The notes under the pieces were generated by a model that saw only the letters and a list, made by a program, of their open reading frames with translations, ran no database searches and was not told the origin of the DNA. Positions 3,325-13,625 of a DNA stretch of 41,953 bases are shown piece by piece. This DNA is from a virus (lineage: Duplodnaviria > Caudoviricetes): the IMG/VR virus record IMGVR_UViG_3300044564_000014, positions 1-41,953 of that record; one strand, 5' to 3'. Position numbers and translations under genes: made by a program. Position 1 is the first letter of the stretch. Each line of letters starts with the position of its first letter.

Positions 3325-6300
3325 TTACTTGTTGTTATTCAATCTGTTGAATAAATCCAGCTGACGTTTCACTCCATTTCTCCCGTCAATGGAAACACTG
3401 GCCTGGATGCCTTGTGACAACTGTCTTTGCAGCTGGTCCATGATGTTACTGAGAGCTCCTATTGTGCCTGAGAGTTCTGAATTATCAGTACTCACGTTGA
3501 CTGTTGGGGCTGAGACGACCGTATTTTCCCCGCCAACAGAACGGCTCACATCGGCAGCGGTGAGACTGCCTACCGTATTGTTTTTCTGCGCCTGGTCAAT
3601 CAGTTGCAGTGCCGGCATGATGGCAGTATTGGCCAAAGCGGTATGGTTGGCCACAAATTCACCTTCGTGGACTATCCCCGCTTTCTTCCTGTAGTCGGAG
3701 CCGCCTGTGAACCCGCCTTCGTAATATCCGGCCTCCTCTGCCTGGTGTTGTTTCTTTATGGCAGCAAGATTGAGCATTCCGGCGGCCATGGCTATTCCAG
3801 CAGCGATAGGTGCCAGAACGAGATTCGCAGGATAGGGTGTACCTTCGTAAGCGGACGAATATGCATTCATCGCACCGATGATCATGGTTGCCGTGGCCTG
3901 AGCCAGTTCTATTTTCATCTGCTTCTTGTTGTATTTCGACTTGATCTTGGCGATTTCTTTTTCCTTTTTTTCCTCCAATGCTTTGGTTTTTGTAGAATTG
4001 CTCCCCGCAGCACCTTCCAGTTTTTCGTATTTCTTCGTCACGATATTCTGTTCGTACTCAGATTGTGCGGAGTAATAAGAGGACATCGCGCTCATAACCT
4101 GTGCGACAGATTCGTAGGCAGTCTGGATCTTGGAGACCATATCCTTGGCAAATTGCGAGGTAGCCTGCGATTTAGCCTGTTGATACTCAGCGTACGAGAT
4201 GGAATCGCTCTTGTATAATTCCTGCAACTGTGCCATCGTATCCTTATAGTGAGTAATATCTCCTGTGAGATAGGATCCCACAGATATTTCTGCTTCTGTC
4301 CCTTCATTAGCATATGCATTATTCGATGCAGCCTGATAGGCCGTGTTCGCATTTTCAGCGGTTCTTGATCGTAATGAATTCCGGTCAGCTTCTTCTGATT
4401 TCTCCCTTGCAAACTGGAGACGGATATTTTTCCGCATCTCCTGATATTCCTTTTCTTTTATCAGTCCTTTTTTGTAGAGGGAATCAAGTCCTTTCAGGGT
4501 AATCGTTTCCTGTTCCTGCAGGTCCTTACGCCCCCATTCCTCACGATACTGTGAGAGTTTTTGCAGGTAATTTTCCTCGTTGTCCAGTTGATGCTGTCTT
4601 TCGTTGTCTTCAAGTTCCGATTGCAGTTCCAGCCAATCTTCCGTCCCTTGGCCATAGAGTTTCTGTTTTTTCTTCAACGCCTCCTGGTCGCTCTGGAACA
4701 GGGCTTCGTTGACGGCGTCCTCGTCCATGTATATCTCGCTGTCTTTGTTGTAGTACTGAGCCTTGATAGCGGCATCGCGCTGCTGCTGCTCCACCTCGAT
4801 CGCCTTCAAGTTCATTTTCAACTTTTCTTCGTCATGGTCTTGTTTGGCTTTTTCTTCGGAGCGTAGGATGTCGTCATATTCCCTGGATCCGGATTTCCAC
4901 AGCTTTTTCCGGTTTTCGAGCCCTTTTTTCAGAATTTCCTCTTTCCGGTCGATGAATTCCTGGTAGGTGATCGTCCCTCTCGCATATTCCGTAGCGAGGT
5001 TGGCCAGTTCGAGGTTGGTAGCCGACTGTTCTTTCTGATCAGCCTCTTTTCGTCTTCTTTCTGCCTCCTTTTCTTCTTTTTCCTCTATATCTTTACGGTG
5101 TTTTTGTTTCTTTTCAAGTGCCTCCTGCTCCTTATCCGTAAGTCCACCTCCATTATTGTTGGAATCGGGATCGGGTTTTGGCTTTGGTTTGATCTCTTCC
5201 TTTTGCATGTCAGTTCCATAGACAGACTCAATGGCCTTTGCTTTCTTACCAACAGCATCAACCTTATTCTGGGCTGCCTTTACCCTTTTTTCAGCTCCAG
5301 ACACATTTGCATTAAGAAATTGAGTCTCGGCCTGAGAAGGAGCCATCATTGACTTCCGATTGATTTCCGTTGTCTTTTTTCTCAGTTCAAGTGTTTTGTT
5401 GTAATTTTCCTGAGCATCTTTCAGTTCAAGAGTAGCGTCAGCCTTTTCCTTACCGAGCGCTTGTAATTTTTCCTTGGCCCCCATGACTTCGTACATCCTC
5501 ATGAGAGACTTGATATAGTCATCAAGTTTTTGCTTATTAGCAACATACTTTGTGCGAGTTTTATCCAGTTTGGCATTATACCCAGGTATGATAGCATTTA
5601 ATTGATCTGCAGCTTTCTTTCGTTCTTCCATAGATAGGTTGCCGTTGTTCATTGCCTTTTCGAGAAGTTTTATCTTCGTGGTCTCCTCTGCCGTTTTTTC
5701 CGATGCCTGTTTTTGTATCTCGTTCAATTCTTTTTGCACGTCAATTTGTTTCTCAGTCCTCCGTGAAAGGTCAATCACCAACCCTACAAGAACTGCTATA
5801 GCTCCGGCTACTGCTATGTATGGATTGGCGATAAGGACTGCCCATAATTTCTTGCAGGATGCTACTACTGCATCGTTCCAAAAAACCTCCAGTTTCTTTT
5901 TAATAATATCTGCTTCTTCGACAACCGTAAGTGCAGTAATTCCAACAATTAGAGTAATAATAGTAACTTTGTACTTACTCACAAAATCAATTAGCCTTGA
6001 GAGTAAATGCACAAGATCACTGCCTCTTGATATCGTATATCTCGCCACCGGCATCAGTTTCTGTCCGAGTTCTATACTAAGGTCTGAAAATTTCTTCTTT
6101 GCTTTGTCTAATTGTGCAGCAACGGTATTATTTTGAATATTAAACTCATTGAGCACTGATGTGCCTTTATTATATTCCGTTGTAGCCAGTCTCTGTGCTG
6201 TTTTAACTTGATCCAAATGTGATGCTACAGAAGACAATACACCTACAGCACGAGTACCATCCAAGTTCATTGATTCGAACATAGGAGCCATCTGCGCGAA

Positions 6301-9789: not shown

Positions 9790-10167
9790 TCAGGCTTTCA
9801 GCCACTCGTCAACTATATTTTTTGCATTCTCACACCAGGCAGTATACGTCGTCCATTCGTCGGCGTAGGCTTCCGAGTCCGTCTGATGATGTCGTTGGAC
9901 GGCGAATTCTTCGGATTCTCCGTATTTCGATCTGATGACCGCATTGACCAGATCGTCCCTGCTATTAGTGTCCGTACAAGGCATGATTGTGCCTCCATCC
10001 ACTTCTGGACCGGAATACTGATACCCTGTATAAGGTTCCGTCTGAGTTCCGGAGTCATCCGCTTTCGGCTGATACTTATCCAGAATCGTCTCGTTAAGAT
10101 AACCGATGATGTGTGTGGAGTCGTACTTCTTATATGTCCGTTTCTCCCGATATACTACTGTGTTCAT
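9790..10167 (-). CDS. Hypothetical phage protein downstream of DGR RT (possible tail-fibre assembly chaperone)
   Basis: 125 aa with 'LVNAVIRSKY..EEFAV...W..Y..W...AK' pattern typical of small proteins near tail-fibre genes; function inferred. Confidence 0.5.
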   Translation of the reverse strand: MNTVVYREKRTYKKYDSTHIIGYLNETILDKYQPKADDSGTQTEPYTGYQYSGPEVDGGTIMPCTDTNSRDDLVNAVIRSKYGESEEFAVQRHHQTDSEAYADEWTTYTAWCENAKNIVDEWLKA

Positions 10168-10179
10168 ACTATTTTATTT

Positions 10180-11820
10180 TTAGGTGAATTTGAAAAAATC
10201 CTGGCCGTTCTTGCCCTCAAACTGTTGGATGACAGTAGGGCAAGGGAGATCCTCCCTGGAAAAATCATGTGTGGCCTGATCTATAAGAATTCTAGATCCT
10301 GTATAGGCGTAATATTCTGCGTCAAGGAGAGTAGGATTACCATCCTTGTCCCTTTTCTTCTCGAAAGCGTATGTTTCAGTGACATTTCCGTATGAGTCCT
10401 CTTTTTCTTCTGTCTTTAGAATTTTCTTAAACCTGATTGCAAGGGCCTTTCCCGGTACAACTTTTGGCACATCTCTGAGAGTTCCTGAAGAATCTTGCAC
10501 ATTGACTGTTACTTGTTTCTTGTTTATCTTAGAGTCCAAGATATTATAGTCCTCCAATAAAATTTTTTTATTCCATCCAGTTGTGCTTTCCCTCAAATAC
10601 TTACATATTGAAGAAAATTTTACTTTTTGTTCACTATCCATGCCGTCGAAGGGCGCATGGATACGATGTTTTTTAATAATTTTTCCAAGCGATTTTTCCA
10701 TACCGATTGACTTTATAAGATGAATTGTATTTGCGTGTTTAGCGTAGCCGAAGCGGGATGCCTGTCGGATTCTTATCTGCTCCTCCGTCAGTCCTTTTTT
10801 CCGCAGTTCTGCCACATGTCTGCAAAGTTCTTTTTTGTTTTTCTTTCCTAGCATCGTCCGGTCGTGATAGAATTGGTACCCTACCAGACGAAGCCCCATC
10901 CATGTGGGCCGCACGTTATAGTCTCCGTTGATCGTAATATGATAGTCCCGTGCGAGGATCGCAACGGAAGTTTCCGCCACAATATGTAGAACGGTTTTGT
11001 CCTCATGGAAAAAGACCATGTTGTCGACAAACCGGTAATAGTGTCGGAGTCCTTGTTTGACGAAATAGCGGAACCTGTCGGCAAGGAACTGCGTCCCTTT
11101 GGAGATCAGTATCTCATCATCAGGAGTAATAGCCGTGGCAATTTTATCAGTAATATATATTGATGTCCAATAGGACAGTTTTTCCGGATCCTTTCCGATG
11201 TCGAAAAACCGTTCAGCCATACGGTCGAAGTCGGCAAGATAGACCTGCCCGAATATCTGTGCGATTTTGATACCCAATGGAACCCCCTGCAGGTAACTGT
11301 CCACTACCTTATCGAGGAACCGGCGGAACTTCCCGGGCTTTACCTTATGGTCGAGTTTATCTTTTAAGATTTGATGATCCATTAGTGGAAAATAATGGTG
11401 TGCATCCATGGACAGATTGTACATCATTTCGTTCTGCGATGACTTATATAGGTCGTTACGGATAAAGCGCAATAGCGCATGGGTTCCCATATTCGGCCTT
11501 ACCGCGGGGGCTTTCCACGATATGTAATCGTATAACTGACGTTCGTAAGGAAGGATTTCTGCTGCTTCTAAAACATGGTCATGAATAGGTGCTTTAGCAA
11601 GGATTCTTTTTTTCTTTTCGAAGATAACTTTCCTCTTATAACCTGACGGTTCCCAATTTTCATTGGAAATCTCTTTGATAATATTGGATAAATTTTTATC
11701 CAGATCTTTTTCAAAAGCTTTGATATTGTGTCTTTTTTCTTTGCCTTTTGAAAAATTTTCATAGGCCTGGAGTAAATTATCAGATGTCTCATTCTCTTTT
11801 CTGTCACGTATTCTCCTCAT
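10180..11820 (-). CDS. DGR reverse transcriptase with C-terminal extension
   Basis: RT motifs: KKRIL..API.DHVL, G.H, MDAHHYFPLMDH, GVPLGIKIAQ...YLADFD, YYRFVDN, LVGYQF; directly downstream of TR; start MRRIRD at 11820 (546 aa). Confidence 0.92.
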   Translation of the reverse strand: MRRIRDRKENETSDNLLQAYENFSKGKEKRHNIKAFEKDLDKNLSNIIKEISNENWEPSGYKRKVIFEKKKRILAKAPIHDHVLEAAEILPYERQLYDYISWKAPAVRPNMGTHALLRFIRNDLYKSSQNEMMYNLSMDAHHYFPLMDHQILKDKLDHKVKPGKFRRFLDKVVDSYLQGVPLGIKIAQIFGQVYLADFDRMAERFFDIGKDPEKLSYWTSIYITDKIATAITPDDEILISKGTQFLADRFRYFVKQGLRHYYRFVDNMVFFHEDKTVLHIVAETSVAILARDYHITINGDYNVRPTWMGLRLVGYQFYHDRTMLGKKNKKELCRHVAELRKKGLTEEQIRIRQASRFGYAKHANTIHLIKSIGMEKSLGKIIKKHRIHAPFDGMDSEQKVKFSSICKYLRESTTGWNKKILLEDYNILDSKINKKQVTVNVQDSSGTLRDVPKVVPGKALAIRFKKILKTEEKEDSYGNVTETYAFEKKRDKDGNPTLLDAEYYAYTGSRILIDQATHDFSREDLPCPTVIQQFEGKNGQDFFKFT

Positions 11821-11955: not shown

Positions 11956-12077
11956 GTTGAGGAACGCCCCGTAGTTCTCATTGGCATTCGAGGGCACATT
12001 GTTACCCGTGAGGGCACAAGGGCCAGCTTCGGCGCCATCGTTCGCATTGTCGAGAGCAGTAAGGGCCCGAAGACCGG
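11956..12077 (-). repeat. DGR template repeat (TR)
   Basis: 122-bp ungapped match to 12261-12382; all 17 mismatches are at TR adenines (minus strand); rich in AAC/AAT codons. Confidence 0.96.
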
Positions 12078-12164: not shown

Positions 12165-12208
12165 AAAAAAAAAGCGACCGCCCTACGGGCGGAGGCGCTG
12201 ACGCGCCT
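12165..12208 (-). promoter_or_regulatory. Tandem GC hairpins 3' of VR (DGR target-recognition hairpins and/or terminator)
   Basis: Minus strand AGGCGC-GTCA-GCGCCT, then CCGCCC-GTA-GGGCGG, then TCGC-T9, starting 7 bp after the target stop codon. Confidence 0.7.
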
Positions 12209-12215
12209 AGTTTAC

Positions 12216-13625
12216 TCAGGCCACCCAGAACGGAGTCGTGTCCCAGTCCTCCGCAGCTTCGCAGAGGAACGCCCCGCAGGACTCATCGGCAAGCGAGGGC
12301 ACACTGTCACCCGCGAGGGCACAAGGGCCAGCCGCGGCGCCATCGCCCGCAGTGTCGAGAGCAGCAAGGGCCCGAAGACCGGATATAGCACCATCACCGT
12401 AGAATCCGTCAGAATAGTTAGTAGCTGTACTTCCTCCAAAGGCTAATGGGTATAAGCACAGATGTTCGAGATTAAGGTCAGATGGATAATTCCAACCATT
12501 GTTGGATGCTGGTATCGTCCCGATTTTTTCCATTCCAGTCAAGGTTTCCAAAGGTATGGAATCTCCAGTCCATATTTTTTTGATGTATACGTCTTTTGAC
12601 GTATCACTGTTATTGCTCAGAATGACTCCGTGCTGGATATGCCAAAGATAATGATAGAAATTCTTCAAGCCATAGAAAACAGGGATATTTTTCACGGCTA
12701 CGGTATTCTCCCCGTTGGCTACATCCCATTCGTACACGCCCAGGGCATCCCCCTTATCGGCCAGTGCATCTATATCGCATACCGGCCAATATGTAAATGT
12801 AGAGTTCATGTTATCGACACCCATACCCAGACCTCCCTGGTGAAGTCCATCTGATGTTAAGGTTGCATTATATCCGGCCTGTCCGTTGCGGTTATGAAAA
12901 ATAATTCGCATCAATGCACCAACGATAAATGTCATCATATACATTGATGCACCCCAGCGTGCGCCGTTTTTCTCTGCATAGGTCTGATACGAATCACTGT
13001 TGATATTGACAACAGGTTTGCCTAATTGAGTATTCCAATCAACATCCAAGTCTGCATTATTAGTTCCTCCACGATATTGTACGTTACGATTACAGTAACT
13101 AACAAGTATCTTGTTAGTACGGTCAATGGCAGCAGCTCCCGCTGCAGACATAGATGCTACGGGAATTTTATAATTCCAGGCTCCGCTGATTGGAGATGTT
13201 GATACCCCTTCGTAATTATAGGTCCCATCGGCCCATTTAGCATAATAAAATGGCACATTCCAGCCCCATTGATAATGCCCCATTGTACCGTCCAATGCTG
13301 CAGCGGTACCATTTTCCAATTTGTAATGGGTCGATGCCGACAATTTTTTCCGACTGTGGTCATTCTGCACGAGATAGCCGCCGAGTCCTAAGACAGATGC
13401 GAGACTTCTTAGAAATTCCATATCTCCATAAGGCTCACCTTCTGGAGAACTATTTCCGATCAGCCATCGAACTCCTGCAATGATTTTCGTACTCAGTAAA
13501 GAACTTATGGGAACATATCCTATTTTATTGCCCGTTTTACTATATCCCATCATCCGAATTCCAGATTCTGCACCTATGTTATCGAAAGGTTCAAGATCTA
13601 ATATTTTTGTCGTTGCTTTTGTCAT
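12216..13625 (-). CDS. DGR target protein, putative receptor-binding protein with C-terminal CLec-like variable domain
   Basis: 469 aa; VR encodes GLRALAALDTAGDGAAAGPCALAGDSVPSLADESCGAFLC near the C-terminus; 'FYGLKNFYHYLW' and 'GGS.T.YSD.FY' patterns typical of DGR targets; at end of tail module. Confidence 0.88.
   Translation of the reverse strand: MTKATTKILDLEPFDNIGAESGIRMMGYSKTGNKIGYVPISSLLSTKIIAGVRWLIGNSSPEGEPYGDMEFLRSLASVLGLGGYLVQNDHSRKKLSASTHYKLENGTAAALDGTMGHYQWGWNVPFYYAKWADGTYNYEGVSTSPISGAWNYKIPVASMSAAGAAAIDRTNKILVSYCNRNVQYRGGTNNADLDVDWNTQLGKPVVNINSDSYQTYAEKNGARWGASMYMMTFIVGALMRIIFHNRNGQAGYNATLTSDGLHQGGLGMGVDNMNSTFTYWPVCDIDALADKGDALGVYEWDVANGENTVAVKNIPVFYGLKNFYHYLWHIQHGVILSNNSDTSKDVYIKKIWTGDSIPLETLTGMEKIGTIPASNNGWNYPSDLNLEHLCLYPLAFGGSTATNYSDGFYGDGAISGLRALAALDTAGDGAAAGPCALAGDSVPSLADESCGAFLCEAAEDWDTTPFWVA
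12261..12382 (-). repeat. DGR variable repeat (VR)
   Basis: Copy of TR within the 3' end of the target gene with A-to-N substitutions (10 G, 4 C, 3 T). Confidence 0.96.

Follow-up and report, generated by a model that had tools for sequence, protein, structure and literature searches.

A conserved C-terminal domain of a prophage DGR RT as a candidate helper of Avd-less DGR cassettes

The DGR cassette analyzed here encodes an RT whose reading frame continues for about 173 residues behind the thumb, raising the question of whether this addition is a built-in accessory factor that may substitute for Avd, as the initial annotation proposed. The window, by which we mean the whole 41,953-nt virus record, is 93% complete and carries integrase, terminase, and tape-measure genes in profile searches. 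It is a prophage carrying a DGR, and its named relatives point to a Prevotella-like host. The phage also carries an ArdC-type anti-restriction gene (PF08401 and PF18818; 28091 to 29080, minus strand). The features of the cassette are the following.

12216 to 13625, minus strand: DGR target gene, encoding a 469-aa tail protein (phrog_5302, E 1e-38)
12264 to 12382, minus strand: VR, at the 3' end of the target gene (repeat match to TR)
12177 to 12207, minus strand: two short GC-rich hairpins, then a T run, just behind the target stop (predicted fold, without shuffle control)
11959 to 12077, minus strand: TR, 119 nt with 22 adenines (repeat match to VR)
11820 to 10180, minus strand: RT, 546 aa, from the ATG at 11820 to the stop at 10180 (open frame and profile)
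10702 to 11820, minus strand: RT core, residues 1 to 373 (phrog_1423, E 8e-52; Foldseek match to 8ub7, E 1e-17; motif census)
10180 to 10701, minus strand: C-terminal extra domain, residues 374 to 546, with a basic N-terminal segment, a variable linker, a predicted OB-like beta barrel, and two long hairpin insertions
10567 to 10608, minus strand: variable linker, residues 405 to 418, the site of a poly-G tract in many relatives, absent in the window
9790 to 10167, minus strand: 125-aa ORF directly 3' of the RT, kept throughout the fused clade and also present next to some stand-alone versions of the domain

The window holds a DGR-type RT and a TR/VR pair with adenine-only differences (15 of 15 at TR adenines), the VR lying at the 3' end of the target gene. 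The gene order is target-TR-RT, which is also found in all fused relatives with enough flanking sequence, and the 138 nt between the target stop and the TR leave no room for avd, so that the cassette has the architecture A1 of Wu et al. (TG-TR-RT without avd). The window was compared with four other metagenome runs (sludge, fermentation, and digester); among the sites listed, all 17 variant VR sites are TR adenines (69 further differences lie outside this list), which makes the cassette look active. The hairpins behind the target stop are candidates for the DGR stem-loop and/or a terminator. The 125-aa ORF, in a CH1-like position, may belong to tail assembly or be a second gene linked to the cassette, and its profile also matches RT-adjoining ORFs in about 25 other loci.

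The open frame on the minus strand extends from 12123 down to its stop at 10180, and the RT most likely starts at the ATG at 11820, since the 101 codons upstream of it include the TR. The RT profile phrog_1423 spans residues 14 to 383 only, and the best structural match of the RT model in the Foldseek search, the Bordetella DGR RT (8ub7), aligns over about 378 columns. Because both the profile and the structural alignment stop there, the residues past about 380 are extra, and the C-terminal domain of about 173 aa noticed in the initial annotation is real. With Met374 encoded at 10701, this segment comprises residues 374 to 546. The catalytic motif of the window RT is F-V-D-N (residues 261 to 267; 11020 to 11040, minus strand) and not the canonical Y-x-D-D. 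A census of 119 relatives finds RFVDN in 111 and RFVDG in 8, making this a clade variant, and the adenine-located VR variation suggests that the enzyme works. Inspection by eye indicates a helical insertion before the catalytic motif (about residues 205 to 256 in the window RT), which is common to the fused clade and missing from RTs of about 335 to 350 aa with a stand-alone partner.

The fusion is kept far beyond the window. The 173-aa segment is matched by 134 of the 606 candidate proteins of 300 to 956 aa, each match being a separate cluster, and segment coverage is 92 to 100% in the 120 matches listed of these 134. All 54 aligned RTs share the Gly373-Met374 pair without exception, and the Y/F-T-G-S and L-P motifs of the domain are likewise invariant. 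More distant fused forms of 496 to 548 aa were found in a representative search (56 matches), and their profile retrieved 80 loci, 62 of them from one gut-phage group; among the 75 full-length loci (the other 5 being fragments), the RT and the domain share one open frame in 69, and a frameshift or stop is present in 6. The 134 matching clusters, the invariant Gly373-Met374 pair, and the open frame in 69 of 75 loci rule out a one-off lost stop codon, which had been named as an observation that would undo the proposal. The identity to the window is 0.58 for the domain and 0.58 for the RT core, with the last 47 residues of the domain more conserved (0.73). Contigs from the four other runs cross the RT/domain junction with no indel in the RT gene, and the four domain SNPs listed are all synonymous. 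The domain is mildly basic, with a pI of 8.9 (8.5 ± 0.7 in relatives), and the fusion is real and conserved.

The fused-domain profile matched 2 of 401 phylum genomes, one being the seed genome. A weak match in 1 of the 401 genomes led to the first stand-alone member, a 97-aa ORF that lies second in order behind a DGR RT and aligns to the fused domain with an hhalign probability of 96.7% (E 4e-10); the comparison of family against family gives 98.7% (E 3e-16). A family profile was iterated from stand-alone seeds, later taking in one frameshifted and one fused member, and the stand-alone family profile matches the window domain with an E value of 3e-9 in a single-sequence test. The domain is thus homologous to genes that sit beside DGR RTs, so that it is not unrelated to DGR-linked genes. 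The initial annotation had pointed to small beta-rich ORFs ending in F-T behind the RT genes of Bacteroidota phage DGRs; such genes exist, adjoin RTs, and are homologous to the domain, but they are not limited to Bacteroidota and also occur in archaeal viruses.

The stand-alone genes, 92 to 99 aa long, are found in bacterial and archaeal viruses, the archaeal-virus members including those of ANMV-1 (AJP62065) and vir525 (DBA35194). A DGR-type RT lies upstream in 29 of 31 loci, abutting in 28 and with one ORF between in 1, and the remaining 2 loci are contig-end fragments. Clear A-biased TR/VR pairs accompany 22 of the loci with an upstream DGR-type RT. The stand-alone genes often overlap the RT stop, and the gene that follows them varies between loci. 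Four placements relative to the RT are seen, namely abutting, one ORF later (as in Bacteroides phage Versailles), fused, and upstream. The upstream placement is represented by 15 copies, and in the 11 with a detected repeat pair the gene lies between VR and TR, which is the usual avd slot. No intact stand-alone copy was found away from an RT in the loci examined. An ORF matched by the family profile in locus L363 is nearly identical to the PAG1 of Alistipes shahii, with 2 differences in about 116 residues when compared by eye, and by this sequence comparison PAG1 belongs to the same family as the fused domain and the stand-alone genes.

Some further observations concern the edges of the family. 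In the cassettes of two loci (L307 and L310), the RT is flanked by two family members, one on either side. A 257-aa protein (P0250) with a Q/N-rich N-terminus weakly matches the barrel (E 1e-4). Stand-alone members match phrog_19665 weakly, which is uninformative because phrog_19665 was detected in 0 of 301 genomes and in none of the controls. The DGR RTs of two crAss phages (cr55_1, L199, 2917 to 4242; LMMB, L202, 2465 to 3760) have C-terminal tails of about 75 aa, which resemble the family by eye but reach only E values of 5e-4 and 8e-3 in single-sequence tests and are not counted, although they may be degenerate fused versions.

To survey the relation to avd, three sets of 80 loci were chosen with the RT as the sole criterion, each being the best 80 of about 590 confirmed loci and seeded from RTs of known neighborhood; sets 1 and 2 share a few contigs. 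The family is present in 56 of 80 loci in set 1 and 73 of 80 in set 2, with Avd in 0 of these 160 by iterated profiles, while set 3, comprising Avd-type RTs, has Avd in 77 of 80 and the family in 0 of 80. Overall, 129 of the 240 loci carry the family, 77 carry Avd, and none carry both. The Avd profile, built from 7 seeds and thus able to miss distant Avd, matched no stand-alone or fused (L276) member among loci L197 to L481, and the window domain has no Pfam match to Avd. Neither helper was detected in 31 of the 160 Avd-less loci, 19 of which have A-biased TR/VR pairs, and a more sensitive recheck of the helper-less loci, including codes 4 and 15, rescued one partial match. The family is therefore either not universal or diverged beyond detection in these 31 loci. 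RT genes with in-frame stops occur in L282 to L287, L279, and L293 to L298, suggesting that these genomes are recoded; no helper was found in them even under codes 4 and 15.

In a tree of the sampled RTs, all Avd-less RTs form one clade (support 0.999), so that the mutual exclusion of avd and the family represents a single clade-level split and not many independent swaps. The window RT groups with PAG1-bearing loci in one Avd-less clade, in a tree built without the RT sequences of Wu et al. themselves. The fused RTs of Bacteroidales form one subclade (support 1.0), and the L276 fusion lies separately, apparently having arisen independently of the Bacteroidales fusion. The anticipated anticorrelation with avd therefore holds, with fused and separate versions both existing and 0 of 240 RT-selected loci carrying the domain together with Avd, as one clade-level event.

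The predicted structure of the domain (pLDDT 87.8) is mostly beta strand. A short helix is joined by a linker to a beta barrel, in which a helix separates strands 3 and 4 and two long hairpins are inserted. The domain has no match in Pfam, PHROGs, or the PDB sequences, and none of 58 or 23 family members matched Pfam, PF17427 included. The VIA structure search gave no match at Z 5 or more, the best reaching Z 4.7 (rmsd 3.3 over 69 residues), and its top 50 rows are mostly OB-fold nucleic-acid binders from the editosome, CST, Pot1, Teb1, and SSBs. The best match in BFVD has an E value of 3e-3, with several phage SSBs at probabilities of 0.99 to 1.0. In the ESM Atlas, a compact homologue reaches 0.96 against phi29-SSB (PF17427) clusters, its recognition score being low (1771), and the domain of the window itself has no match there. 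In the Foldseek check proposed earlier, OB/SSB-type rows recur, but nothing in the PDB or BFVD reaches an E value of 0.001 or below. The model is confident and the matches are weak but consistent, suggesting that the domain is likely an SSB-like OB fold of the phi29 type. The earlier description of the domain as nucleic-acid binding is compatible with this predicted fold, which is the part of the analysis that speaks for it.

We consider the domain a likely helper of Avd-less DGR cassettes, and our main reading, to which we give a probability of roughly 0.62, is that of a single-strand-binding helper dedicated to DGRs, which would be attached behind the RT thumb and do Avd's job with another fold. 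From its position, the domain would bind the single-stranded TR RNA and/or the adenine-mutagenized cDNA, keep it open and shielded, and so perform the Bordetella-type job of Avd with a different structure. Nucleic-acid binding, necessity, and the step served by the domain are what we infer here. A single-strand-binding helper fits the pathway, since the accessible text on the reconstituted BPP-1 DGR (PMC12875486) reports that cDNA integration prefers the lagging strand and that ExoI inhibits it. For the Bacteroidales prophages a single fusion event is most likely, in which the stop between the RT and an abutting helper gene would have been lost. Met374 would be the old start methionine of the formerly separate gene and, as the initial annotation suggested, may be an internal start; an origin from an abutting gene is suggested by the frequent overlap of stand-alone genes with the RT stop.

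The main rival keeps the domain dedicated to the DGR but lets it act only at cDNA integration, as an SSB-like or annealing-like protein at the replication fork, the need for Avd having been lost in some other way, so that the domain is an addition and not a replacement. The resemblance to phage SSBs in BFVD and the ESM Atlas agrees with such a role, as do the lagging-strand bias and ExoI inhibition reported for BPP-1. Avd-less DGRs without the family exist and could use a host SSB, and the exclusion of avd amounts to one event. However, the gene occupies the avd slot in 11 loci and has been fused to the RT at least twice, which suggests action on the RT complex, and we regard a role confined to integration as unlikely.

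Whether the domain is needed at all is a question posed by a poly-G tract in its relatives. A census of 104 full-length close loci (76 viral and 28 genomic, partly redundant) finds a run of 7 to 16 G about 40 codons into the domain (RT codon about 410 to 414) in 64; the window has no such tract. The tract keeps the frame in 18 alleles and shifts it by +1 in 28 and by -1 in 18, leaving 46 of 64 out of frame, and 38 of the 40 loci without a tract are continuous. This one site holds 64 of the 67 long G/C runs in 803 kb. After clustering at 95% identity the tract is present in 35 of 66 clusters; among the 12 clusters with several members, 9 differ internally in tract length and 6 contain both in-frame and out-of-frame alleles. 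A stop triplet (TAA, TAG, or TGA) directly follows the tract in 29 of 35, a count inflated by shared ancestry, compared with 4.9% after short G runs elsewhere (21% if T follows). Most out-of-frame alleles are predicted to yield the RT plus about 41 to 50 residues, and in 14 of the 46 the barrel frame contains an ATG close to the tract, so that a restart is possible in some alleles. Apparent stand-alone genes of 119 to 141 aa were set aside, as they start at the G tract and are products of out-of-frame alleles. Example tract loci are L001, L004, L005, and L007 (at about 4110 to 4125), the L019 group, L091, and L114, the last two being isolate genomes of Prevotella lysogens with the tract out of frame. 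A related fused RT (L008, MT835875.1) is frameshifted at another site, a G8 run at codon about 230 in the middle of the RT.

The tract is likely a phase-variation switch; slippage during expression may be an alternative, and a pure assembly error is unlikely. The fraction of TR adenines substituted in the VR is 0.56 for out-of-frame and 0.58 for in-frame alleles, a similarity that fits either reversible switching or dispensability. The domain could accordingly be a dispensable enhancer or regulator, tuning the rate or serving as a protein scaffold, with the RT core mutagenizing alone, and the 46 out-of-frame relatives with undiminished VR divergence and the 19 apparently functional DGRs without either helper are in line with this. 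Nevertheless, the domain equals the RT core in conservation, its last 47 residues exceeding it, and outside the tract-bearing alleles it is almost never broken. The coexistence of both frame states in 6 of 12 near-identical groups fits the reversible switching of a needed part, and we consider dispensability improbable.

SSB-like genes are common in phages. An unrelated gene, such as a replication SSB or a tail-assembly gene, could have adjoined the cassette by chance and been fused by accident, given that the cassette is part of a tail module and that conservation in the fused clade extends to the next ORF, but this very improbable reading is largely refuted by the gene context, as the family accompanies the RT in unrelated viruses of bacteria and archaea with changing flanking genes, shifts its position within the cassette, and has no intact stand-alone copy away from an RT in the loci examined.

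Returning to the single-strand-binding helper, the domain is a member of an under-described DGR-linked family including PAG1 and a strong candidate for the helper of Avd-less DGRs. This names a candidate helper protein for most of the Avd-less cassettes sampled and unifies three unlinked observations, namely RT extensions without annotation, PAG1, and the hypothetical genes that follow RTs, as in ANMV-1. It also touches a standing question of the DGR field, the route by which cDNA reaches its target. With the helper fused to the RT, a single gene would suffice as the mutator, which would be easier to engineer and to reconstitute than the pair of bRT and Avd, and the natural in-frame and out-of-frame alleles offer a ready-made test. 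More tentatively, a large clade ranging from gut phages to archaeal viruses may possess a second, OB-fold-based DGR machine, in which an SSB-like partner replaced Avd, the fused form would be a single-protein mutator in Bacteroidales prophages, and the G tract with its built-in stop would give phase-variable hypermutation in many of them.

Among known systems, Avd of Bordetella phage BPP-1 (bAvd) is likewise small, mildly basic, and RT-linked, and the family occupies the same gene slot in some loci. Avd subunits are helical, whereas the domain is a predicted beta barrel that does not match Avd in sequence and can occur in a 1:1 fusion with the RT. Avd is described as an essential homopentamer in the accessible text of Wu et al. 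2018 (PMC5758913). The phi29-type SSB (PF17427) and other OB-fold SSBs share a similar predicted barrel topology with the helix between strands 3 and 4, as indicated by weak structure and language-model matches, but the domain, unlike phi29-type SSBs, is encoded in DGR cassettes and not in replication modules and has no Pfam match. The available part of a report on an engineered system (10.64898/2026.07.21.739853) describes the addition of an ssDNA-annealing protein.

Our literature search, in which subscription journals were sparsely covered, found no description of an OB or SSB-like DGR accessory domain. The accessible portions of Macadangdang et al., Roux et al., the hankyphage paper, and the Bacuni paper name Avd or Msl or leave accessory genes out altogether, and nothing resembling the domain appears in them. 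One ANMV-1 ORF is labeled "Avd" in a figure within the available part of Paul et al. 2015 (PMC4372165), and this may be the stand-alone family gene. The DGR RT of Quimbyvirus, as described in the accessible text of Benler et al. 2021 (PMC8008677), is a Bacteroidota phage RT in three overlapping ORFs that nevertheless shows A-specific VR variation, the split being read by its authors as programmed frameshifting.

The closest precedents are found in the accessible text of Wu et al. 2018 (PMC5758913), where the authors conclude that mutagenic homing must follow another, unknown route in Avd-less DGRs and describe architecture A as lacking accessory genes. The Lineage 3/A1 DGRs have the same TG-TR-RT order without avd as the window. 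That text reports motif-less RT extensions in about 20% of DGRs and C-terminal extensions of up to about 150 aa, without a motif in most and MutS_I-like in three; the domain has no MutS or HRDC match in Pfam, and the one CH1 sequence compared by eye does not resemble it. Two RT ranges in their table, 1515 and 1548 nt for P. distasonis and B. cellulosilyticus, have the size of the fused RTs described here. PAG1 ("potential accessory gene 1") was reported there in 3 DGRs on evidence called tenuous, with all three genes in the Avd-less Lineage 3 between target and TR, and the accessible text neither assigns it a fold nor connects it with RT extensions or with genes located downstream of the RT. 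Unlike PAG1, the window domain is fused to the RT and carries two long hairpin insertions.
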